Under the pieces are notes generated by a model. That model saw nothing but the letters and a program-made list of their open reading frames with translations, was not told where the DNA came from and did no database searches. A program made the position numbers and the translations under genes. A DNA stretch of 9,795 nucleotides from a virus (lineage: Duplodnaviria; Heunggongvirae; Uroviricota; Caudoviricetes): positions 1 to 9,795 of IMG/VR virus record IMGVR_UViG_2778261533_000002; one strand, 5' to 3'. This document shows, piece by piece, positions 1-9,795 of this stretch (position 1 is the first letter of the stretch; every line of letters starts with the position of its first letter).

Positions 1-235
1 CATGACAAGGTCATCGGGCATTATCTGAACATAAAACACTATCAGTAAGTTGGAGTCATTACCAAGCTATAGATGATAGAAAAATTGGAGCGGCAATGTA
101 TATATTTTCTAGCCATAATGGGTTTTCTACAATCAAGTATCCAAAAGGTATTAAGTATATTATAGCCAATAGTTGAAGGTTTTTTAATTTGGATGATGCG
201 TCAACCAACTTATTTTTATATTCCATACAACGTCC

Positions 236-1309
236 TTATTTCAACTTTAACGCCAAATCTTCAGCTTTTGGATGATAATACCGCATTAGCATTCTTGGAT
301 CTTTATGTCCTGTAATTTTGGTCAGTTCATGCATAGGGAAAATTTCAGCAAGTCGAGAAGTTGCTTCATGTCGAAGGTCATGAAATCTTAAATCTTTAAG
401 GAATGATTCATCACATAATGAGTTTGTTTTCTCGTATCGTTCTCTGGCTCGTTTTACAGCTCGGTCAAAAGCTCGGGTAATCGCGTCTGCACGCATATCA
501 AAAACCTTATCAGCAGCTGGCTTAGAATGTTCCTTGAGACTGGACAGTATCGTGATGGCTTTCGTTGATAAAGGGACATCGCGGGCATTACCATTCTTAG
601 TATCCGGCAGATGTGCAACTCGCCGATCAAGATCGATAAAGCGCCATCGAAGCTCTGCGATTTCGCTACGGCGCATGGCTGTCTCTAACGCCAGAAGAAT
701 GATTGCTGGCAATACTAATGAATGTGTTGCGGCGATGATATGTTCGATCTCGTTGGCTATTTCCTTTCCTGACGTAACACCGGTTTTCTCAGAAACTACA
801 GGCAGCGCTTCCAGGCGTCTGGTCCTGGAGTTCTTGGGTTGAGGTTTGCGAATGGCCTCTACGGGGTTCAGCAGGCTCTCCATGCCCCATTCTTTCCGCG
901 AAACGTTGAATACATGAGAAAGTAAGGCCAAACGCCTTAAAACGGTTGCAGGGGCATAGATTTTCAACCATTCATCTCTCAGCTTGGCGACATCGGCACT
1001 CCTGATGCTGGCCATATAGTTTTTCGCCAGCTGAGTGCCTTTTAGTATCCGCACCAATGATCGGTCTTGCACTGCCCCTTTTTTGTCGGGAACAATCTCT
1101 TTTTCATATCGCGTTAGGGCTTCATACAATGTCGTAGATTCCGCTTCGCTGCGGCTAAGCCAAACTCCTCTCGCCATTTCTGACTCGATCATTTTGGCCC
1201 AAGCTTCTGCTTCTACTTTGGTGTTAAAGGTTTTGGTTTGAGAGGGAAAACCTCGTTTACGGATTTGAGCTTCCCATTGGTAGTTACCACGTTTGCGTAT
1301 AGTCGCCAT
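236..1309 (-). CDS. Tyrosine-type site-specific integrase of element A
   Basis: Open frame 236-1339 on the minus strand. The track start at 1339 is TTG; the in-frame ATG at 1309 (MATIRKRGNYQWEAQIRKRG...) is the more likely start. C-terminal catalytic signature of tyrosine recombinases is present: RFHDLRHEATSRL and the tyrosine in MRYYH. Stop at 236-238. Confidence 0.85.
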   Translation of the reverse strand: MATIRKRGNYQWEAQIRKRGFPSQTKTFNTKVEAEAWAKMIESEMARGVWLSRSEAESTTLYEALTRYEKEIVPDKKGAVQDRSLVRILKGTQLAKNYMASIRSADVAKLRDEWLKIYAPATVLRRLALLSHVFNVSRKEWGMESLLNPVEAIRKPQPKNSRTRRLEALPVVSEKTGVTSGKEIANEIEHIIAATHSLVLPAIILLALETAMRRSEIAELRWRFIDLDRRVAHLPDTKNGNARDVPLSTKAITILSSLKEHSKPAADKVFDMRADAITRAFDRAVKRARERYEKTNSLCDESFLKDLRFHDLRHEATSRLAEIFPMHELTKITGHKDPRMLMRYYHPKAEDLALKLK

Positions 1310-1397
1310 TTCTGTCTGATTCCTAACGAACTGTGGCAATATTGTGGCAAAAAATCCATTTAAATTCGATAGGTATTGATTTTACAAGATCAATTTA

Positions 1398-1446
1398 CGC
1401 ATTCGTAATGCGAAGGTCGTAGGTTCGACTCCTATTATCGGCACCA
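1398..1446 (+). other. Attachment-site core: 3'-terminal 49 nt of a tRNA-Thr(CGU) gene (thrW-like), including the T-arm, acceptor 3' strand and CCA; not a complete tRNA
   Basis: CGCATTCGTAATGCGAAGGTCGTAGGTTCGACTCCTATTATCGGCACCA folds as anticodon stem-loop (anticodon CGT), variable loop, T-arm (TTCGACT loop) and acceptor 3' strand plus CCA. The upstream sequence does not supply an acceptor 5' strand or D-arm. Identity to E. coli thrW is recalled from memory. Confidence 0.8.
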
Positions 1447-1460
1447 TTTAAATCAATAAG

Positions 1461-2624
1461 TTACACATCATTAGTACCTTCCTTATTTTTTGACTGGGAC
1501 GAATTTGGGACCGATGGGTTCAGGATCGAGTCTATTTGCCGTGCGTGTTCGGTAAGGTGATTAGGTGCAAGGTGAGCATATCGACGAACCATTTCGATAG
1601 ACTCCCAGCCTCCCATTTCCTGTAACACTGACAACGGGACTCCGGCTTGAACCAGCCAACTTGCCCAGGTGTGTCTCAAGTCGTGAAATCTGAAATCATC
1701 AATACCAGCCCGTCTCAGCGCCGCTTTCCAGGCTGTGTTTGCGTCATACCGCATCTTCCTTACTGTTGGCGCTTTCGTTCCGTCTGGTTTGGTACAGCTT
1801 TCCTTGTACACAAATACCCAACGGTGATGATTCCCGATTTGTTTTTTCAAAACGCGACATGCAGTATCATTCAGCGCAACGCCAATTGCGCGGTTTGATT
1901 TACTCTCTTCCGGGTTTATCCATGCCACCCGGCGCTGCATGTCTATTTGTTGCCATTCAAGGTTGATGATGTTCGAGCGTCTTAAGCCTGTTGCCAGTGC
2001 AAATTCAACAACAGACTTTAATGGCTCCGGACATTCATCAATCAGCCTTTGTGCTTCATGGGGCTCCAGCCAGCGGATCCGTTTATTCTTTGGTTGAGGC
2101 ACTTTAATAATTGGTGCCTTATCCAGCATTTTCCATTCACGCTCTGCGGCTCTTAGTAGGGCCTTTATAAATGAAAGATGCGTAGCCTTCGTTGCAACGG
2201 ACGCTGGTTTTGGCGTGTATTCTGGAACAGGTTTCCCTTTTTTTCTGCATGCTTCTGCCCTGAGTCTCCAGTTTTCCTCATGACGCCGGTTCGTCATTTT
2301 CTGCATTGCTGAATAAATTTTTGATTCAGTAATGTCTCTTAGTTGCATTCCTGCGAAATGTTGAAGCCAGAATCCGATCCGGCTTTTGTCATCGTCCAGT
2401 GATTTTTTATGTGCTTTCTCTTCAAGCCACCTGACACACGCTTCCTCGAACGTTATATCAGGTATTTCACCAAGTTTGCTGACCCGCCATGCTTCAGCCT
2501 TTAGCTTGTCATGGAGTTCTGTCGCCTGCCTTTTGTCCTTTGTTCCAAGAGACTGTTTAAATCTTTTACCGTTCGGCAATGTGAAACTGGCGTACCATAT
2601 TTCACCTCTGCGGAAGAGTGACAT
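1461..2624 (-). CDS. int: Phage integrase, P22 Int-like tyrosine recombinase (387 aa)
   Basis: ATG at 2622-2624 ([14 protein letters not shown]...), stop at 1461-1463. Catalytic motifs [14 protein letters not shown] and VRRYAHL are present. Length and N-terminus match my recollection of P22 Int, which integrates at thrW. Confidence 0.9.
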
Positions 2625-2851
2625 TTTCTTTCCTCTGTTATGCCATCACCCGCGCTCACCTGGACAGTATGCAGCGGAGACTGAAGAGCCGCAATGCAGG
2701 CTTGTCGTGTTGTGAGGTAAGGAGATTTATTCTTAGTGGGATCTTTGCGTGTTGCCTGAAGACGCCCTGTGCGTATCCAGTTAATGGCAGTCGGTCTGGA
2801 TATCTTGAGAAAATGACAGGCCTCATCGAGTGTGAGGCTGTATGGCTCCAT
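2501..2851 (-). CDS. xis: Excisionase (Xis), 116 aa, helix-turn-helix
   Basis: The track ORF 2501-2935 is an upstream extension. The internal ATG at 2849-2851 ([31 protein letters not shown]...) gives a 116-aa product and overlaps the stop of the upstream gene by 1 nt (TAATG). The 3' end overlaps int by 124 nt in another frame. The position upstream of int and the HTH-like segment fit an excisionase. Confidence 0.75.
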
Positions 2852-3156
2852 TATTTCACCTCTTGCTGTGACATTGTTGAAAAATGGATACCAGCTCGTT
2901 GCTGCCAGACGATCCAACCGAGAGTCATATCCCATGCCATGTATTCGTTATCGCCGTTTTTTGCTCTCCGACGATCTACTAAGTTACCGAAACGCTTTTC
3001 CATGAATAATTCATAAGCTTCGCGTTCATCTGGTTCTACTTCCAGAGATAGGAGTGCGATTTCATAAGCACGGCGCTCAATATCGTCTCGCACGTCAAGG
3101 CTGCTGATACGCTCTTTAATTTCTTTAATCAGTTCTTTGTCGGTAAAAGTGGTCAT
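2851..3156 (-). CDS. Hypothetical phage early protein (101 aa)
   Basis: ATG at 3154-3156 overlaps the stop of the upstream gene by 1 nt (TAATG), and its own stop overlaps the xis start by 1 nt. Acidic, helical-looking sequence with no recognisable motif. Confidence 0.6.
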   Translation of the reverse strand: MTTFTDKELIKEIKERISSLDVRDDIERRAYEIALLSLEVEPDEREAYELFMEKRFGNLVDRRRAKNGDNEYMAWDMTLGWIVWQQRAGIHFSTMSQQEVK

Positions 3157-3518
3157 TATGCTCCAGCCTCCGGTGCTTTTGGCATTACTGCCCAGTGAGT
3201 GATATTGACGTTTTCAAGGTCCCCGACCTGAAATGTCCACTGCCATTCTCCGGTTTCTTTTTGTCCCCAGGTGTACCAGAGAGAACGCCAACCAATTAGC
3301 CAGCCTTCTCCGTTAGCATCGAATAACAAAACACTTTCATTTGCTGGTGGCAGTTCAGTTGACACTGGTATTACTTTGTTTTCCTGTGCTGCACATTTAG
3401 CTTCAAGCGCATCGAATTTACGCACCAGGTATTCAGCATCTGTTTCATTTACTTTCAGATCTCGCGGTACACATCTCCCACGAAGAAACCCTTCCATTTC
3501 GAAAACATTCATGCGCAT
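3156..3518 (-). CDS. DUF551-like phage protein (120 aa)
   Basis: ATG at 3516-3518 is preceded by GGAG at an appropriate distance. The C-terminal segment WQWTFQVGDLENVNITHWAVMPKAPE resembles the conserved THWMPLPEPP end of DUF551 proteins, as I recall the family. First gene of the leftward operon. Confidence 0.65.
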   Translation of the reverse strand: MRMNVFEMEGFLRGRCVPRDLKVNETDAEYLVRKFDALEAKCAAQENKVIPVSTELPPANESVLLFDANGEGWLIGWRSLWYTWGQKETGEWQWTFQVGDLENVNITHWAVMPKAPEAGA

Positions 3519-3973
3519 TTGCGTAACTCCGATAACTCGTTAAAGCGTTCCATAAACATCCCGTAACAGACAACAGGGCAGAGAACGGTGCTGTCTTTTT
3601 CAGTTTGAGAGTGGCGGTGTTAGTTTCTCCACAAAACAGAGAAGAACACCTGCGGTGGCAGCCGCCCGGATGGATTGGGTTATGAGCCCGTCGTCCGGTG
3701 ATGCTCTTCTCTGTTTTGTAAAAAGAGCGGTACCAGCCGGAAGCAAGTGTACAAACTGGTACCGCCAAAGCAGTGGCTGTTGTGGTGACCGGTGCTGATC
3801 TCCGGCTTGCGGTTATTTCAGACTCTCACGGGCGTTTAATTGCCCCGCCGAACAGCTCTTTTCCGCAATAGCTGCAATGTCTTTCGCGCATCAGTCTGCG
3901 CATTCACCACAACGCTGAGAGCACTTAGCCAGTTATCTATCCGAAAGATTAACAGAACACCTTCAATTTTTAA
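3519..3973. promoter_or_regulatory. Divergent control region between the leftward (int/xis) and rightward operons; contains two large inverted repeats and no ORF
   Basis: Imperfect palindrome with 18-bp arms (3631-3648 and 3702-3719, 17 of 18 complementary) separated by 53 bp. Immediately after, a perfect 10-bp inverted repeat GCGGTACCAG/CTGGTACCGC (3727-3736 and 3756-3765) with a 19-bp spacer. A hairpin followed by TTTTT lies at about 3566-3600. Promoter hexamers were not confidently assigned. Confidence 0.4.
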
Positions 3974-4057
3974 CCACAGAACGATGAGGCTAACCGCAAT
4001 GCGTCGAATGTTTATCAGCTTAACGTTGCGAAGCTTCAGGCAGCGGCATTTTCTCAA

Positions 4058-4212
4058 CTGTCAGATTCTGACCCGTCAAAATCTGACGCATCAAAATCTG
4101 ACCCGTCAAAATTTGATGCGTCGAAATCTGGCAAAAAAGCGGGTTTTCACCCGTCAGAATCTGGCGGGGATCCGTCAGTAAAATCAAAACATGATCCGTC
4201 AGATAAAAAACC
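4058..4212. repeat. Tandem 15-bp repeats, consensus cCGTCAAAATCTGAc: five contiguous units (4058-4132) plus three degenerate CCGTCAG-initiated copies (4151, 4172, 4196)
   Basis: Direct reading: ctgtcagattctgac / ccgtcaaaatctgac / gcatcaaaatctgac / ccgtcaaaatttgat / gcgtcgaaatctggc. The period is a multiple of 3 and sits in an open frame, where it encodes DPSKS/DASKS-type pentapeptides. Confidence 0.8.
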
Positions 4213-4330
4213 TTCTCGTCCGGACGCTTCGCAACCGGACACGCAGACGGCTGAACAGGATTTTTTAACTCGCCATCCTGATGCGGTTGTATTCAGCCCT
4301 AAAAAGCGCCAGTGGGGGACGCAGGATGAT

Positions 4331-4699
4331 TTGACCTGCGCACAGTGGCTCTGGAAAAAAATCATCGCCCTGTACGAGCAGGCTGCCGAATGTGACGGCG
4401 AGGTGGTTCGTCCCAAAGAACCGAACTGGACAGCCTGGGCAAACGAAATTCGCCTGATGTGTGTGCAGGATGGTCGTACTCACAAACAAATCTGCGAGAT
4501 GTACAGCCGCGTCAGCCGCGATCCGTTCTGGTGCCGTAACGTGCTCAGCCCGTCGAAGCTGCGGGAAAAATGGGATGAGCTTTCTCTGCGCTTATCGCCG
4601 TCCGTCAGCACGTACACAGAAAAACGCGAAGACCCGTACTTCAAAGCCAGTTACGACAATGTGGACTACAGCCAGATCCCGGCAGGATTCAGGGGGTGA
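4331..4699 (+). CDS. DnaT-like (primosomal protein I C-terminal domain-like) phage replication-associated protein; coordinates are from the first canonical start (TTG), but the frame is open from 3974
   Basis: The C-terminus ...DNVDYSQIPAGFRG matches the characteristic C-terminal end of E. coli DnaT (...SEPDSQIPPGFRG, from memory). Stop at 4697-4699, immediately before the SD (AGGGGG) and ATG of the next gene. The same frame is stop-free for 119 codons upstream (3974-4330) with no ATG/GTG/TTG, so the 5' extent is unresolved. Confidence 0.6.
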   Translation: MTCAQWLWKKIIALYEQAAECDGEVVRPKEPNWTAWANEIRLMCVQDGRTHKQICEMYSRVSRDPFWCRNVLSPSKLREKWDELSLRLSPSVSTYTEKREDPYFKASYDNVDYSQIPAGFRG

Positions 4700-4701
4700 G
4701 C

Positions 4702-5190
4702 ATGAGTCTTTTGAATGACGTTCAGAAATTCATTGAAGCCCATCCGGGCTGTACTTCCGGAGACATTGCGGATGCTTTTGCAGGTTACTCACGGCAGCGC
4801 GTTCTGCAGTCAGCAAGCAAGTTACGTCAGAGTGGGCGTGTGGCTCACCGTTGTGAAGGAGATACACACAGACATTTCCCGCGCCTGACTGAGAGAGCGC
4901 AGGATCCGGAACCACAACCAGTTCGTGAAACCAGACCTGTGCGCAATTTCTATGTCGGCACTAACGACCCGCGGGTGATTTTGTGCCTGACCCGCCAGGC
5001 GGAAGAACTGGAGTCCAGGGGCTTATACCGTCGTGCTGCAACGGTGTGGATGGCGGCATTCCGTGAAAGCCACTCCCAGCCAGAACGAAACAATTTTCTG
5101 GCGCGTCGTGAACGGTGTTTACGGAAAAGCAGTAAGCGGGCTGCATCAGGTGAAGAGTGGTATCTCTCAGGGAATTACGTGGGGGCTTAA
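4702..5190 (+). CDS. PerC-family-like transcriptional regulator with an N-terminal winged-helix-like region (162 aa)
   Basis: ATG at 4702 sits 5 nt after AGGGGG; the track GTG at 4696 is less likely. The C-terminal motif AEELESRGLYRRAATVWMAAF resembles the LE.GLWRRAA.RW core I recall for PerC/Pch proteins. Stop at 5188-5190 overlaps the next start (TAATG). Confidence 0.6.
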   Translation: MSLLNDVQKFIEAHPGCTSGDIADAFAGYSRQRVLQSASKLRQSGRVAHRCEGDTHRHFPRLTERAQDPEPQPVRETRPVRNFYVGTNDPRVILCLTRQAEELESRGLYRRAATVWMAAFRESHSQPERNNFLARRERCLRKSSKRAASGEEWYLSGNYVGA

Positions 5191-5843
5191 TGAGTAATAA
5201 ATATTGCCAGGCGCTGGCGGAACTGCGGAACAAACCAGCCCATGAACTGAAGGAAGTGGGCGATCAGTGGCGCACGCCGGACAACATTTTCTGGGGAATT
5301 AACACTCTGTTTGGCCCGTTTGTTCTGGATCTGTTTACTGACGGTGATAACGCCAAATGTGCTGCGTATTACACGGCGGAAGACAACGCGCTGGCGCATG
5401 ACTGGTCAGAACGCCTTGCGGAGCTTAAAGGTGCTGCCTTTGGTAATCCCCCATACAGCCGCGCCAGTCAGCATGAGGGGCAATACATCACCGGCATGCG
5501 TTACATCATGAAGCATGCCAGTGCCATGCGTGATAAAGGCGGGCGCTATGTTTTCCTGATCAAAGCTGCCACCAGCGAAGTGTGGTGGCCGGAAGATGCA
5601 GATCATATTGCTTTTATTCGCGGGCGTATTGGTTTTGAACTGCCTGCCTGGTTTATCCCGAAGGATGAGAAGCAGGTGCCGACAGGCGCTTTCTTCGCTG
5701 GTGCTATTGCTGTTTTCGACAAGACCTGGAAGGGACCGGCAATCAGCTACATCGGGCGCTATGAACTTGAGGCATGTGGTGAGGCCTTTCTGGCGCAGGT
5801 TCGCCAGCAGGCAGAAAAACTGGTCAGGGAGATGGCGGCATGA
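5190..5843 (+). CDS. Phage Dam-type DNA N6-adenine methyltransferase (217 aa)
   Basis: ATG at 5190 is preceded by GGGGG and overlaps the upstream stop; the track GTG at 5157 is less likely. Motifs [10 protein letters not shown] and FGNPPYS (catalytic NPPY) fit the small phage Dam family found in T1 and lambdoid nin regions. Stop at 5841-5843 overlaps the next ATG (ATGA). Confidence 0.75.
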
Positions 5844-6154
5844 CGACGTTAACTCAATGCCAGCAGCAGGTGCTGGATATGCTGATTTCTTATCAGAAAG
5901 AACGTGGCTTCCCGCCAACCAATCAGGAGGTGGCAACCATGCTGGGATGCATGGCCCGTCTGAAAAAGAACAACAGCGATTTGCACGATTTATTAGTAGA
6001 TTATTATGTAGGTGGTATGACGTTTATGGCGCTTGCCCGTAAACATGGGCGTTCTGATTGCTGGGTTGGGCGCTTATTGCAAAAGGCAGAAGGCATCATT
6101 GAAGGTATGTTGATAATGTTAGAAATAGAATTGGAAATGGACTCAAATATCTAG
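5840..6154 (+). CDS. Q-like late antiterminator (QuuD/21-type short Q) with an atypical LexA-like N-terminus (104 aa)
   Basis: ATGA-coupled to the MTase. The C-terminal two thirds ([35 protein letters not shown]...AEGIIEGML) resemble my recollection of the DLP12 QuuD antiterminator. The N-terminal 36 aa ([33 protein letters not shown]) instead resemble the LexA N-terminal DNA-binding helix pair. The last 20 codons lie in AT-rich sequence. Confidence 0.5.
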
Positions 6155-6281
6155 AAAGATATTTTATGAGTATCTGGATTTTTAATTTGTATTGTTAGCA
6201 TGAAATTAAGGAGGGTGGACTGTTTGTGCTTTATATTAATGTTTTTGTGGGGATTTAATAACCACTGATTTATTTGAGGGT

Positions 6282-6316
6282 GGCGCTAATGTACAAGGTT
6301 TTTAGTAATTAGCGCC
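6282..6316 (+). terminator. Possible intrinsic terminator or hairpin downstream of the Q-like gene
   Basis: Perfect 9-bp inverted repeat GGCGCTAAT/ATTAGCGCC with a 17-nt loop, followed on the plus strand by a U-rich tract (tgctggtttgttattttatttt). It lies 11 nt past the stop of the convergent minus-strand gene, but that strand has no U-run after it. Confidence 0.3.
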
Positions 6317-6326
6317 TGCTGGTTTG

Positions 6327-7778
6327 TTATTTTATTTTGCTTACTATATTTGTAATAAGTGGGTCAAATTTCTCATCAATAATTTCAATATATTTTTTAA
6401 TTGCTAAAGTTCTAATTACTTCCTCCTCACATTCTGCTTCTTTAGCAATTGCTTGAGTGTAATTGTGATGATCACTAATCCCTTCCTTTTTTATTAACCA
6501 ATCAAAATCAATATGATACTCCTTGTAGAGGAATTTTTTTACTTCCTCATGTTGAAATACTTCTACTTCTGGTGGCCTATTGCCAGGGAAAGAAAATAAA
6601 TCATCTTTAATGTTTTCTCCAACATCTGCATCTCTTACGGCAATAACATTAAGGCCTGCTTTCTTGAATACCTCGACTGCTTGTCGGACTGCATCTTTAT
6701 CTCCAATATCAGTGATTTGAATGGATTTAAGAATGTCTCTCCGCTTTGCTCTAATTACTTCACTAAGTAAAACTTTTGCAAACTGGTCTTCTACGCAAAT
6801 ATGCAGCCCTTTAAACTGCCCATCAGACAGTATTGATCTCACATGAGTTGTTGAAATTCCATCTTTGATATAGACACCAGTCTGATCTCTAATAAGTAAT
6901 TTTCGTGCATCAGGAGGTAAAGCATTTAATATCACACTTGAGTGTGTTGATAATATTATTTGATGTTTTCTACGTTGACATACTTCCATTAAATATTTTG
7001 CAAATTCATACTGTGCGCTTTCATGAAGAGATGTTTCTGGTTCTTCTAGTACGAAAAGACTTTGCTCTGGAGCTGTTTCAAGCATATCAACCGTATAAAG
7101 AACTCTTCCTTCGCCAAACCCCATGTTATTTTCAGAATAAGAATACCCAAGTCTTTCAACAATACCAATTTCTGAACGACGTGCTCTATGAGAAATTCCT
7201 TGGAATGCGATATCATCATATGGATGACCTATTATTTTTGCCATCTTCAATATTACTGAATGGTCGACGCTTCTTCTCTCTGTTAAATCAAAGTCTTTAC
7301 CGCCATAAACACTTATATCTCTACGTTCTACTTTTGGAATATAGACAGTAAAACCAATGTAAAAACAGTGTCTTTCTGGTTGTCTTTTATATCCAGACCA
7401 AGAAGACTTTATGCGAGTGACAGTCACATCTTGTGTTTTCGTTGAATCATTTGTTTCATATTTATAAATGACACTGGCGTCATTATCGAAAGGGGCTGGA
7501 TCGGCTTTAGATACAGGGAAAAAATCTTTAATATATAATCTCTTATATTCACGGGCTGTAACTGGTTTTTTATATGCGCATATTGCTAACTGCCCAAGAG
7601 TGCTTTTCCCAGCGCCGTTTAGCCCTGATATTGCAGTTACCGGAAAATTTATATTTAATGTTAGTTTTTTTATTCCTCGAAATCCATTTATCTCTAGACT
7701 TTTAATTACGGAGCCAAAGTTTGAGTATCTATTTTTATCAAAGTACATGCATTTTAGTATATTTTTTATGTCTGACAT
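6327..7778 (-). CDS. ABC-type ATPase fused to a Toprim-like nuclease domain; OLD/PARIS/Gabija-like candidate anti-phage defence protein (483 aa)
   Basis: ATG at 7776-7778 has AGGAAAG upstream and an in-frame TAA two codons before it. Walker A GLNGAGKST (about aa 52-60, read directly from the DNA as GGG CTA AAC GGC GCT GGG AAA AGC ACT). Walker B plus D-loop LFVLEEPETSLH (about 241-252). H-loop ILSTHS (about 275-280). C-terminal Toprim-like signature: CVEDQFAKVLL (Glu about 330) and, about 55 aa later, AVRDADVGE (DxDxG, about 383-387). Confidence 0.7.
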   Translation of the reverse strand: MSDIKNILKCMYFDKNRYSNFGSVIKSLEINGFRGIKKLTLNINFPVTAISGLNGAGKSTLGQLAICAYKKPVTAREYKRLYIKDFFPVSKADPAPFDNDASVIYKYETNDSTKTQDVTVTRIKSSWSGYKRQPERHCFYIGFTVYIPKVERRDISVYGGKDFDLTERRSVDHSVILKMAKIIGHPYDDIAFQGISHRARRSEIGIVERLGYSYSENNMGFGEGRVLYTVDMLETAPEQSLFVLEEPETSLHESAQYEFAKYLMEVCQRRKHQIILSTHSSVILNALPPDARKLLIRDQTGVYIKDGISTTHVRSILSDGQFKGLHICVEDQFAKVLLSEVIRAKRRDILKSIQITDIGDKDAVRQAVEVFKKAGLNVIAVRDADVGENIKDDLFSFPGNRPPEVEVFQHEEVKKFLYKEYHIDFDWLIKKEGISDHHNYTQAIAKEAECEEEVIRTLAIKKYIEIIDEKFDPLITNIVSKIK

Positions 7779-8043
7779 TTTTTATCTTTCCTGATATGAA
7801 TGAGAGTTATCTTTAGAAAAACAATAAATTTATAACATTTAGAGATGTATTCATCAATGATTGGGTAAATATCGTGCATTTGTTGTTTTAAAATCAACCA
7901 AGAATGATTTTTATAATTATGTCAATTGCCTTATTATCAATATGGTAATGTTTTCTCAATCTAATTATTGGGGGGGAATATATTATTTACAATCGTAAAT
8001 AATCAGATATGCTCTCAAGAGTGGTTACTTCGCCACACAACTT

Positions 8044-8069
8044 AAACCCGCCGTCGAGCGGGTTTTTTT
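8044..8069 (+). terminator. Rho-independent terminator (plus strand)
   Basis: aaacccgc-cgtcga-gcgggttt hairpin (GC core CCCGC/GCGGG) followed directly by a T run of 7 (8063-8069). It marks the right edge of the AT-rich island. Confidence 0.65.
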
Positions 8070-8191
8070 GTACCTGTAAACCTGGTGCAGTACGGTAAAC
8101 ACGCTGGTGGTCGTGAATACTGACTTTTTATCTTGCTGGCTTTTTAGACAAGAGTTATTGGTATGTCATGTTAACCAGAAGGAAAAAAGAC

Positions 8192-8386
8192 ATGTTAAAA
8201 CAGCAAGATATGACAGAAACGGCGAAAGTTGTTTTTAATGAATTAAGCATCGAACCGGCAACAGTCGGGGAGATTGCACAAAACACATATCTTTCACGCG
8301 AACGCTGTCAGTTAATACTGACCCAGTTGGTTATGGCGGGGCTGGCAGATTACCAGTTCGGCTGTTACAGACGCCTTCAGCTATGA
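8192..8386 (+). CDS. Small winged-helix DNA-binding protein (64 aa), possibly PapI/FaeA-like
   Basis: ATG at 8192 lies 8 nt after AGAAGGA; the track ATG at 8168 lacks an SD. The segment ATVGEIAQNTYLSRERCQLILTQLVMAGLA has the spacing of an HTH recognition helix followed by a wing, comparable to PapI as I recall it. Confidence 0.55.
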   Translation: MLKQQDMTETAKVVFNELSIEPATVGEIAQNTYLSRERCQLILTQLVMAGLADYQFGCYRRLQL

Positions 8387-8535
8387 AGGACTTTTAATTT
8401 GTGAAAATGGGCGGCTGGTGGGTGTTGGTAGCACCTGCCAGCCATTCGCTCATGCTTACTGGTCACAAGCGAACCACGGCCCACTGCTTTAGCGCAAAAG
8501 CAGAGTGAGCCTACCAGAGTTACGCTTACTGATCC

Positions 8536-9588
8536 ATGAAAAATACTGTAAAAATAAACAGTGTTGATTTAATCAACGCTGATTGCCTGCATTTTATTCA
8601 GTCCCTGCCTGATGATTCCATTGACCTGATTGTTACCGATCCGCCGTACTTCAAGGTGAAACCCAACGGTTGGGACAATCAGTGGAAAGGGGACGAAGAT
8701 TACCTTAAGTGGCTGGACCACTGTCTGGCCCAGTTCTGGCGGGTGTTGAAACCTGCCGGAAGCCTTTACCTGTTCTGTGGGCATCGCCTGGCATCTGATA
8801 TTGAGATCATGATGCGTGAACGTTTCAACGTGCTTAACCATATCATCTGGGCGAAGCCGTCCGGACGTTGGAATGGGTGTAATAAAGAAAGTCTGCGCGC
8901 ATATTTTCCTGCCACAGAGCGCGTTCTGTTTGCTGAACATTACCAGGGGCCATATCGCGGCAAAAGTGACGGCTATGCGGCAAAAGAAAGGGAACTCAAA
9001 CAGCACATAATGGCACCGCTGATATCGTATTTCAGGGATGCTCGTGCCGAACTGGGTATAACGGCAAAACAAATTGCCGAAGCCACAGGTAAGAAAAATA
9101 TGGTTTCCCACTGGTTTGGTGCCAGTCAGTGGCAGTTGCCGAATGAGGCTGACTATCGGAAGTTACAGGCACTGTTTTCCCGTATAGCGGCAGAGAAGTT
9201 TCAGGAACAACAACTGGAACAACCACACCACCAGCTGGTGGCATCTTATGATTCACTGAATCGCAAATATTCTGAATTGCTGGATGAGTTTAAATCTCTC
9301 CGGCGCTATTTCTCCGTATCAGTCTCCGTGCCTTATACCGATGTCTGGATGCATAAACCCGTTCAGTTCTACCCGGGTAAACATCCGTGTGAGAAACCGG
9401 CGGATATGCTCAGGCAAATAATCAATGCCAGTAGTCGACCTGGTGATCTGGTTGCTGATTTTTTTATGGGATCCGGTTCCACAATAAAAGCAGCAATGGC
9501 GCTGGGGCGTCGGGCCTTAGGTGTTGAGCTTGAGTCAGAGCGGTTTAACCAGACAGTGAAAGAGATAAACGAGCTGGTGGGGAAATAA
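8536..9588 (+). CDS. DNA methyltransferase, beta-class N6-adenine/N4-cytosine type (motif IV before motif I), 350 aa; no cognate endonuclease in the window
   Basis: N-terminal [12 protein letters not shown] (catalytic DPPY) and C-terminal [17 protein letters not shown] (AdoMet-binding FxGxG). The central target-recognition region contains an HTH-like segment ([12 protein letters not shown]). A GATC sits immediately 5' of the ATG. Confidence 0.85.
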
Positions 9589-9594
9589 TCTGGT

Positions 9595-9620
9595 GGCCAC
9601 GTCAGGTGGCCTTTTTATTT
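9595..9620 (+). terminator. Rho-independent terminator after the MTase, in the position of a late-region tR'-like terminator upstream of the holin start
   Basis: ggccac-gtcag-gtggcc hairpin (9595-9611) followed by TTTTTATTT (9612-9620), 7 nt after the MTase stop and 36 nt before the holin-like ATG. Confidence 0.65.
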
Positions 9621-9655
9621 CCATTACACAGCACCCGCATCTGCGAGGTGGGGTT

Positions 9656-9784
9656 ATGAAATCCATGGATAAGTTAACAACGGGTGTCGCCTATGGCACC
9701 TCAGCAGGTAGTGCCGGGTACTGGTTTTTACAGTTTGAACCGTCCCGGGAATCCTGGAGACTAAACTCCCTGAGAAAGAGGTAA
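9656..9784 (+). pseudogene. N-terminal remnant of an S21/EssD-type pinholin (dual-start MKSM motif and first transmembrane/SAR segment only)
   Basis: ATG at 9656 is preceded by [33 protein letters not shown] matches the first 26 residues of phage 21 S as I recall them. The frame then diverges ([16 protein letters not shown]) and stops at 9782-9784, and no frame in the remaining window encodes a second TMD. A new RBS-ATG (AAAGAGG, ATG at 9789) follows. Confidence 0.45.
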
Positions 9785-9795
9785 ACAGGATGACT

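Follow-up and report, generated by a model that had tools for sequence, protein, structure and literature searches.

A lambdoid prophage cargo gene of Escherichia coli encoding a probable single-chain ABC-Toprim immunity protein of the HEC-04/IbfA superfamily

The present analysis concerns a 9,795-nucleotide stretch of DNA (IMG/VR record IMGVR_UViG_2778261533_000002, positions 1 to 9,795; hereafter the window), which belongs to an SfV/mEp460/SfII-like lambdoid prophage of Escherichia coli. Between the remnant of the antiterminator gene Q and a terminator, the window carries a complete gene on the minus strand (6327-7778), which starts with ATG and encodes a 483-residue protein like WP_032083250.1. 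The RefSeq name of this protein is already 'ATP-dependent nuclease', and a literature search with its RefSeq accession found no mention of it. As judged from profiles, alignment and structure models, the protein joins an SMC/Rad50-like ATP-binding cassette (ABC) ATPase head (residues 1-316) to an OLD/AriB-type Toprim nuclease domain (residues 317-483). We consider it probable (about 0.8) that the product is an anti-phage immunity protein made of one polypeptide and belongs to the HEC-04/IbfA superfamily, the gene forming a self-contained, AT-rich 'moron' cargo antisense to the late genes.

The N-terminal head, including its beta-rich insert, is encoded at 6831-7778 and the C-terminal Toprim domain with its helical bundle at 6330-6830, both, like all the motifs within them, on the minus strand. 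The Walker A motif GLNGAGKST (residues 52-60; 7599-7625), assigned by position and conservation, contains the lysine K58. It is followed by the Walker B/D-loop LFVLEEPETSLH (residues 241-252; 7023-7058), within which LEEPE begins at residue 244 and includes E246, and by the H-loop ILSTHS (residues 275-280; 6939-6956), in which STHS begins at residue 277 and provides H279. The Toprim domain carries the glutamate motif CVEDQ (residues 328-332; 6783-6797), with E330 and D331, and the DxD motif RDADVG (residues 382-387; 6618-6635), with D383 and D385. A preliminary description of the locus had listed the 483-residue frame and these ATPase and Toprim motifs, all of which proved to be present as described when their positions were checked. 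The separation of the Toprim glutamate from the DxD motif, given there as about 55 residues, measures 53 (E330 to D383), and its choice of K58, D383 and D385 as catalytic residues agrees with the residues predicted here, to which E330 is added; all four are invariant in the alignments described below.

Pfam recognises the ATPase only (AAA_15, E = 2e-19; AAA_21, E = 3e-14; also AAA_23 and SMC_N), and PHROG 3940, a family annotated as of unknown function, matches the protein at 1.5e-77. The best defence profile is PADLOC HEC-04 (PDLC04149; E = 3.9e-47, 159 bits), which covers residues 5-410 with profile positions 7-403 of 494. The second-best PADLOC profile, that of the type I-B retron ATPase-Toprim protein (2.5e-22), covers residues 238-470 with the C-terminal domain included; it is the sole PADLOC profile besides HEC-04 that also spans the Toprim and helical parts, and it matches the domain alone at 6.6e-5. 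Searched by itself in PADLOC, the C-terminal domain matched the profiles of HEC-04 and retron I-B and no others. Many GajA, PtuA and HEC-01A profiles match as well, on the conserved ATPase segment only.

HEC-04, a 'Hma-embedded candidate' system, was described as a single-gene ABC-ATPase-TOPRIM whose expression cut the plaquing of several coliphages and which was toxic upon induction with isopropyl beta-D-1-thiogalactopyranoside; its defence was abolished by the Walker A substitution K62A and by the metal-site substitutions E319A/D375A/D377A (Payne et al., 2024; bioRxiv 10.1101/2024.01.29.577857). According to the later work on IbfA, its range comprises T4 and T5, not T7 or lambda (PMC12111858). 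The tested protein, WP_044502283.1 of E. coli MOD1-EC5853 (Table S2 of Payne et al.), was recovered full length, and BLASTP aligned the window protein collinearly with it over residues 1-402 (26% identity, E = 5e-30). In this comparison K62, E319, D375 and D377 of HEC-04 align with K58, E330, D383 and D385 of the window protein, FVEDE (E319) facing CVEDQ and IIDGD (D375/D377) facing RDADVG, and the essential lysine, glutamate and DxD residues are kept in the window clade. Both proteins are single polypeptides of about 485-490 residues, with an ABC ATPase followed by a Toprim domain and, for the window protein as far as genomic evidence goes, no partner gene required. They differ in the C-terminal helical part, which the alignment shows to be about 15-20 residues shorter in the window protein, and in setting: HEC-04 was found inside Hma (helicase-methylase-ATPase) systems, whereas the window gene occupies a slot of a lambdoid prophage and has its orthologues located in satellites or defence islands. 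Embedding in Hma is the context of discovery of HEC-04 and not a mechanistic requirement.

Residue conservation was assessed in a two-clade alignment of 54 sequences, with a window clade of 31 (57-78% identical to the query) and a HEC-04 clade of 22 (24-26%), and in a three-clade alignment to which one IncF-plasmid homologue was added. K58, E246, H279, E330, D331, D383 and D385 are invariant in the 54 sequences and remain so with the plasmid homologue. The same holds in both alignments for G52, N54, G55 and G57 of Walker A and for V329 beside E330 and D331, while L241, E246, L251 and H252 are invariant in all three clades; P403-E404 and histidine 437 are invariant in the 54 sequences and stay so with the plasmid homologue, and E245 is invariant in the 54-sequence alignment. 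Because this invariance extends across clades sharing only 24-26% identity, the motifs represent more than chance resemblance.

The HEC-04 profile itself gives a measure of distance within the superfamily. The tested HEC-04 scores 746 bits (745.8) over positions 4-489 of 494, the window protein 159 bits over positions 7-403, its Pseudomonas orthologue 159.5 bits over positions 12-403 and IbfA of plasmid R64 141 bits over positions 16-386. Since its score is about as distant as that of R64 IbfA, the window protein is best placed in a sister clade of HEC-04, and on these sequence comparisons the window clade is a separate branch within the known HEC-04/IbfA superfamily, not a new kind of system. 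The preliminary terms 'uncharacterised' and 'undescribed subfamily' therefore do not stand: the family already stands in PADLOC as HEC-04, defence against T4 and T5 has been demonstrated for a homologue, and IbfA belongs to the same superfamily.

IbfA of the IncI1 plasmids R64 and pUA1135 causes an abortive-infection-like interference with a P22-like phage, R64 is reported to hinder several phages, and IbfA was recognised by its authors as a HEC-04 homologue (PMC12111858). We located R64 ibfA at NC_005014 32653-34209, where it encodes 518 residues and adjoins a ProQ/FinO gene, as stated in that study. BLASTP between R64 IbfA and the window protein gives about 25% identity and covers the ATPase part only (residues 14-283, E = 2e-11). 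Both proteins combine ATPase and Toprim in one chain, are borne on mobile elements and lie at a similar distance from the HEC-04 profile; IbfA differs in being plasmid-borne beside the ProQ/FinO gene and 35 residues longer.

Further plasmid relatives were also observed. IncF-type E. coli plasmids (L002:2465-4030 and L016:2965-4530) encode a 521-residue 'AAA family ATPase' adjoining a DUF3800 gene, which shares 29% identity with R64 IbfA and 23% with the window protein and matches the HEC-04 profile at 3.9e-32. This protein was considered as a possible IbfA and rejected on account of its 29% identity to R64 IbfA; it represents a further clade. A tblastn search with the window protein found matches in 294 plasmid records, of which 249 are conjugative; the IbfA type and the IncF 521-residue type are both included among these matches.

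An AlphaFold2 model of the full-length protein, built from the 54-sequence alignment without the plasmid-derived sequence, had a mean predicted local distance difference test score (pLDDT) of 84, and residues 317-483 modelled alone reached a pLDDT of 95 and a predicted template modelling score of 0.89. The models show the canonical Toprim pattern, with strand 325-329 ending at E330, strand 378-382 followed by D383-x-D385, and a helical bundle thereafter. The ABC head resembles SMC, Rad50 and RecF. Its insert is mostly beta in the monomer model (strands 97-141 and 164-215); the loops at 79-84 and 144-155 have low confidence, and no helical dimerization domain is visible. Against the PDB, Foldseek ranked TsOLD (6p74) first for the full-length model (6.6e-13), then GajA (5e-11), the OLD nuclease of retron Eco8 and PtuA. 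Profiles, alignment and models together support the earlier reading of an ABC ATPase plus Toprim of the OLD/PARIS kind: the searches against OLD, Gabija and PARIS profiles and the structure comparison yielded a Toprim fold with conserved acidic residues, and not a non-nuclease fold.

The inserted dimerization domain of OLD and GajA is helical, and P2 Old is about 586 residues long. A class 1 OLD is defined by an ABC ATPase at the N-terminus, with a Toprim domain at the C-terminus, encoded in a single gene, and OLD and GajA carry the dimerization domain within the ATPase (PMC10568477). The class 1 layout is present in the window protein. One alternative reading makes the protein a canonical class 1 OLD nuclease, related to P2 Old or Thermus OLD at the level of orthologues and working exactly as they do. 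The gene is a single prophage gene, as is P2 old, itself prophage cargo that excludes other phages (PMC10568477). TsOLD is the best full-length Foldseek match and also the best solved structure by sequence, at 5.8e-7 for the single protein and 7.9e-15 for the family profile, no superfamily member being represented among solved structures. These sequence matches, however, are confined to the ATPase motifs, and the full-length template modelling score to TsOLD is only 0.37, with 15-19% identity in structural alignments. The Pfam OLD-like_TOPRIM model stays below its threshold, with a weak match in one of the 54 family members only, and the C-terminal domain alone matches only HEC-04 and retron I-B in PADLOC. 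In addition, the ATPase insert, beta-rich in the monomer model, appears to differ from that of class 1 OLD and to be smaller, and Payne et al. describe the ATPase parts of ABC-Toprim systems as structurally distinct (bioRxiv 10.1101/2024.01.29.577857). The window protein is 45-100 residues shorter, Thermus OLD having 528 residues (PDB sequence file), in rough agreement with the preliminary estimate of about 100. Membership in canonical class 1 OLD is accordingly considered unlikely.

PARIS shares the same two modules and is likewise phage- or satellite-borne, often phage-borne according to PMC11464382, and the PADLOC AriA profiles match the window protein at 7.7e-19 and 1.6e-14. A fused PARIS, with AriA and AriB in one chain, would have anti-restriction proteins, for example Ocr, as its trigger and would cleave tRNA-Lys. 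The AriA matches are, however, limited to the conserved ATPase segment at residues 210-285, and the fused AriAB profile reaches only 3e-11 over residues 219-285 against a model of 694 positions, far less than the HEC-04 profile. The C-terminal domain alone gave no match to the AriB profile in PADLOC, and no DUF4435-type domain of Pfam was matched by the window protein; an AriA-type ATPase joined to an AriB-type DUF4435 Toprim was therefore not found, nor was a full-length AriAB match. PARIS is moreover made of two proteins, AriA and AriB, in a large complex (PMC10802454). Taken together, a fused PARIS is very improbable.

The effector of retron I-B (class 3 OLD, Retron-Eco8) and GajA (class 2 OLD) are among the best fold matches, but both differ from the window protein in size (580-740 residues) and in gene content. 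No reverse transcriptase-like frame is present in the list of open reading frames (ORFs) of the window, and a search of the window for an RNA partner found neither an Rfam family at the gathering threshold nor a tRNA. Similarly, no ORF for a UvrD-like GajB helicase occurs in the cargo island or the window, and GajA profiles match the ATPase segment alone.

The gene lies in an AT-rich cargo island (6155-8043) delimited by G+C content and SfV homology. Its left boundary is a chimeric ORF (5840-6154, plus strand) that joins a LexA-like N-terminus to the C-terminal half of antiterminator Q, a deletion remnant, and on the right a terminator scan placed an intrinsic terminator (8044-8072, plus strand) with an 8-bp stem, five GC pairs and a T run. 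The G+C content is 0.34 in the gene and 0.27-0.33 in its flanks (6155-6326 and 7779-8043), against 0.48 beyond them on either side. SfV homology resumes at 8045, at the terminator (8044-8065) that corresponds to the one in SfV, where a 'putative rho-independent terminator' is annotated within about 100 bp after Q. Both the prophage location and the low-GC island of the preliminary description were thus confirmed. No meaningful direct or inverted repeats were found at the island borders, where only short, AT-rich chance matches occur. The island is present in 11 of 5,426 complete E. coli genomes, always in this prophage context. In a prophage of E. coli 120899 with the same gene order, the corresponding gap holds a different antisense gene (L020:2989-3435, minus strand), which encodes WP_001038608.1, a 148-residue hypothetical protein with no Pfam match and itself the product of a candidate moron or defence gene. 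Because another prophage of the same gene order carries different cargo there, the gap between Q and the terminator is regarded as a variable cargo slot, with the 1.9-kb island as one allele.

Other features of the window were noted around this island. It is flanked by orphan methyltransferase genes, which are usual in SfV-like phages: a Dam-type gene (5157-5843, plus strand; 5e-45) and an N6_N4_Mtase gene (8536-9588, plus strand; 2.2e-42). The modification they encode could affect how host or prophage nucleases treat the prophage or incoming DNA. At the left end, two tyrosine integrase genes stand in tandem on the same strand (236-1339 and 1461-2624, both minus strand; Pfam Phage_integrase, 1.6e-26 and 3.5e-48), which suggests that a single attachment site holds a stack of two integrative elements; for the left one, similarity to SfIV-type phages extends from window position 1. 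At 4067-4130, beside a deletion breakpoint, lies a tandem array made up of 4.3 copies of the 15-bp unit TCTGACCCGTCAAAA. This repeat is iteron-like in appearance, encodes the repetitive 'QNLT' peptides of the ORF list and may be a remnant of a lambdoid replication origin.

The prophage is without its immunity and replication region and without the stretch that begins at RusA and runs into Q as far as its N-terminal half; the exact LexA-Q deletion junction had no one-piece match in complete E. coli genomes. These losses, the truncated Q and the weak promoter evidence would be expected if the gene were an inactive remnant, intact in appearance but unexpressed or decaying in a dead prophage. A candidate promoter of its own (TTGATA, 16 nt, AATTAT; 7913-7940, minus strand) came from a promoter scan as a consensus match only, agreeing at 9 of 12 positions. 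Against a remnant stand the good Shine-Dalgarno-like sequence AGGAAAG, read directly 5' of the ATG (7786-7792, minus strand), the full-length ORF with all its catalytic residues intact, the 99.7-99.8% DNA identity of the gene to copies in intact prophages and the strong purifying selection across genera described below. Loss of function is on this evidence extremely unlikely.

Relatives of the protein are widespread. When 1.84 billion cluster representatives were searched exhaustively with HMMER, 128 representative clusters matched at E <= 1e-30 and 971 at E <= 1e-10; among the matches listed, lengths of 475-530 residues prevail. A word-indexed search found 736 relatives, of which the best 120 are nearly all 482-484 residues long and come from Klebsiella, Vibrio, Pseudomonas, Aeromonas, Shewanella, Methylomonas, Acidithiobacillus and metagenomes. 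The Klebsiella orthologues (L003-L006) reside in a satellite-like island with integrase, AlpA, AbiC-like, HicB, HEPN and capsid-protease fusion genes, and that of Pseudomonas (L007) adjoins a ThsB-TIR gene. In Aeromonas (L010-L012) the orthologues occupy an integrase-bounded island in which a DUF3427/HNH gene follows on the same strand 13 bp downstream and may be co-transcribed, while the Shewanella orthologue is at a chromosomal site with nothing notable nearby.

No conserved neighbour gene was found across five genomic contexts, these Klebsiella, Pseudomonas, Aeromonas and Shewanella loci among them. Genes of 140-170 residues that lie upstream on the same strand in Pseudomonas, Aeromonas and Shewanella were examined as a hidden partner and dismissed as mutually unalignable; the gene downstream of the Klebsiella orthologue was dismissed too, being missing from one Klebsiella context. 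Within the gene itself, an antisense ORF of 148 residues (6905-7351, plus strand) was likewise rejected, since the frame is closed in all four orthologues compared (Klebsiella, Pseudomonas, Aeromonas and Shewanella). Its length is reached by only 1% of codon shuffles of the gene, and AT-rich codon usage probably gave rise to it. The earlier statement that the island holds no partner gene of at least 60 residues is valid for non-overlapping ORFs in 6155-8043, the others being antisense inside the gene and not conserved in orthologues, and the orthologue loci agree with its description of a stand-alone gene. This absence of a conserved partner, as far as genomic evidence goes, would agree with HEC-04 working alone.

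The number of nonsynonymous substitutions per site (dN) between the gene and its orthologues is 0.18-0.29. Synonymous divergence (dS), calculated by the NG86 method, was saturated and hence undefined for three of the four orthologue pairs, and the dN/dS of 0.14 against Shewanella is the sole numeric value. The comparisons, in which dN lies far below dS, point to strong purifying selection across genera. Pseudomonas and Aeromonas genomes are GC-rich. The orthologues are all AT-rich (G+C content 0.34-0.43), the Pseudomonas and Aeromonas copies included, which fits a horizontally moving cassette.

Another alternative reading gives the protein a role outside immunity, in the DNA metabolism of the mobile element or the host, for example in repair, recombination or stabilisation of the element. 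The resemblance of the ABC head to SMC, Rad50 and RecF and the persistence of the gene in a decayed prophage are in favour of such a role, and the IbfA paper speculates on co-opted chromosomal homologues (PMC12111858). The gene is, however, patchily distributed (the 11 E. coli genomes mentioned above), AT-rich, horizontally mobile and located in a variable cargo slot, and at other loci it is found beside defence genes and integrases. Moreover, both tested relatives, HEC-04 and IbfA of pUA1135, restrict phages, and the same is reported of R64. A function in DNA metabolism is for these reasons highly unlikely.

Several observations weigh against the assignment of the gene to anti-phage immunity within the HEC-04/IbfA superfamily. 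The match to the HEC-04 profile is weak in comparison with that of the tested protein (159 vs 746 bits) and leaves the last 80 or so residues outside; a full-length, high-scoring match, as found in the tested clade, was not obtained. Pfam OLD-like_TOPRIM (PF20469) scores only 13 bits (E = 0.16), below the gathering cut-off of 23.2, and gives even a weak match in only one of the 54 family members. In the promoter scan, sigma-70-like hexamers 5' of the gene were not more frequent than in shuffled sequence, and because the prophage is heavily deleted the context of expression is uncertain. As for the relatives, the study of IbfA found no ATP depletion, unaffected phage DNA replication and reduced late gene expression, and proposed an effect on phage transcription; it also raised possible non-defence roles, by co-option, for chromosomal homologues (PMC12111858).

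If the gene does encode an immunity protein, its product would most likely act as a nuclease that is gated by the ATPase and serves abortive infection or exclusion, as proposed here by analogy with HEC-04, IbfA, OLD, PARIS and Gabija. The ABC head would bind ATP via K58, E246 and H279, and would probably mediate self-association of the protein as a homo-oligomer. In an uninfected lysogen, the ATP-binding head would hold the Toprim site inactive; a cue from an infecting phage would then shift the ATPase or the oligomeric state and lift this restraint. The predicted Mg2+ site of E330, D383 and D385 would subsequently cleave nucleic acid, halting phage development at a price to the cell, which would cease to grow or die, the outcome being abortive infection or exclusion.

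The substrate of the predicted cleavage may be tRNA or DNA, between which the odds appear roughly even. AriB is a tRNase (PMC12409363 and PMC11464382), and a 2026 preprint describes P2 OLD as a tRNase activated by hairpins of single-stranded DNA at the lambda origin (10.64898/2026.07.10.737580), whereas TsOLD, BpOLD and GajA cut DNA in vitro (PMC10568477). The IbfA data, with replication unaffected and late expression reduced, would fit a target in RNA or translation slightly better.

It is possible, although rather doubtful, that the clade of about 483 residues constitutes a functionally distinct single-chain ABC-Toprim lineage with a trigger and a target of its own, for instance a tRNase sensing the replication or recombination intermediates of competing temperate phages. 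The distance of the clade from HEC-04, which is about that of IbfA, and its C-terminal helical region, shorter than that of HEC-04, are consistent with such a lineage. The clade may be specialised as prophage or satellite cargo, and antisense placement between Q and the terminator could tie expression to lysogeny, with converging late transcription switching it off at induction.

Defence by a single-gene ABC-Toprim protein is already known as a kind from HEC-04 and IbfA, and what is new is this member clade in a prophage cargo slot. A 2023 review of OLD proteins asked whether a single-gene OLD-like protein alone can drive phage defence (PMC10568477), a question that HEC-04 and IbfA begin to answer. 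With the window gene the superfamily would gain a third deep branch, carried on lambdoid prophages and on satellite-like and defence islands across Gammaproteobacteria, and the gap between Q and the late terminator of SfV/mEp460-like prophages would stand out as a variable cargo slot worth mining. As a compact one-gene cassette of 1.9 kb, it would be usable for comparing how different ABC heads sense infection and for deciding whether the Toprim effectors of this group cut tRNA or DNA, and its interest would rise if the clade proved to have a distinct trigger or target.

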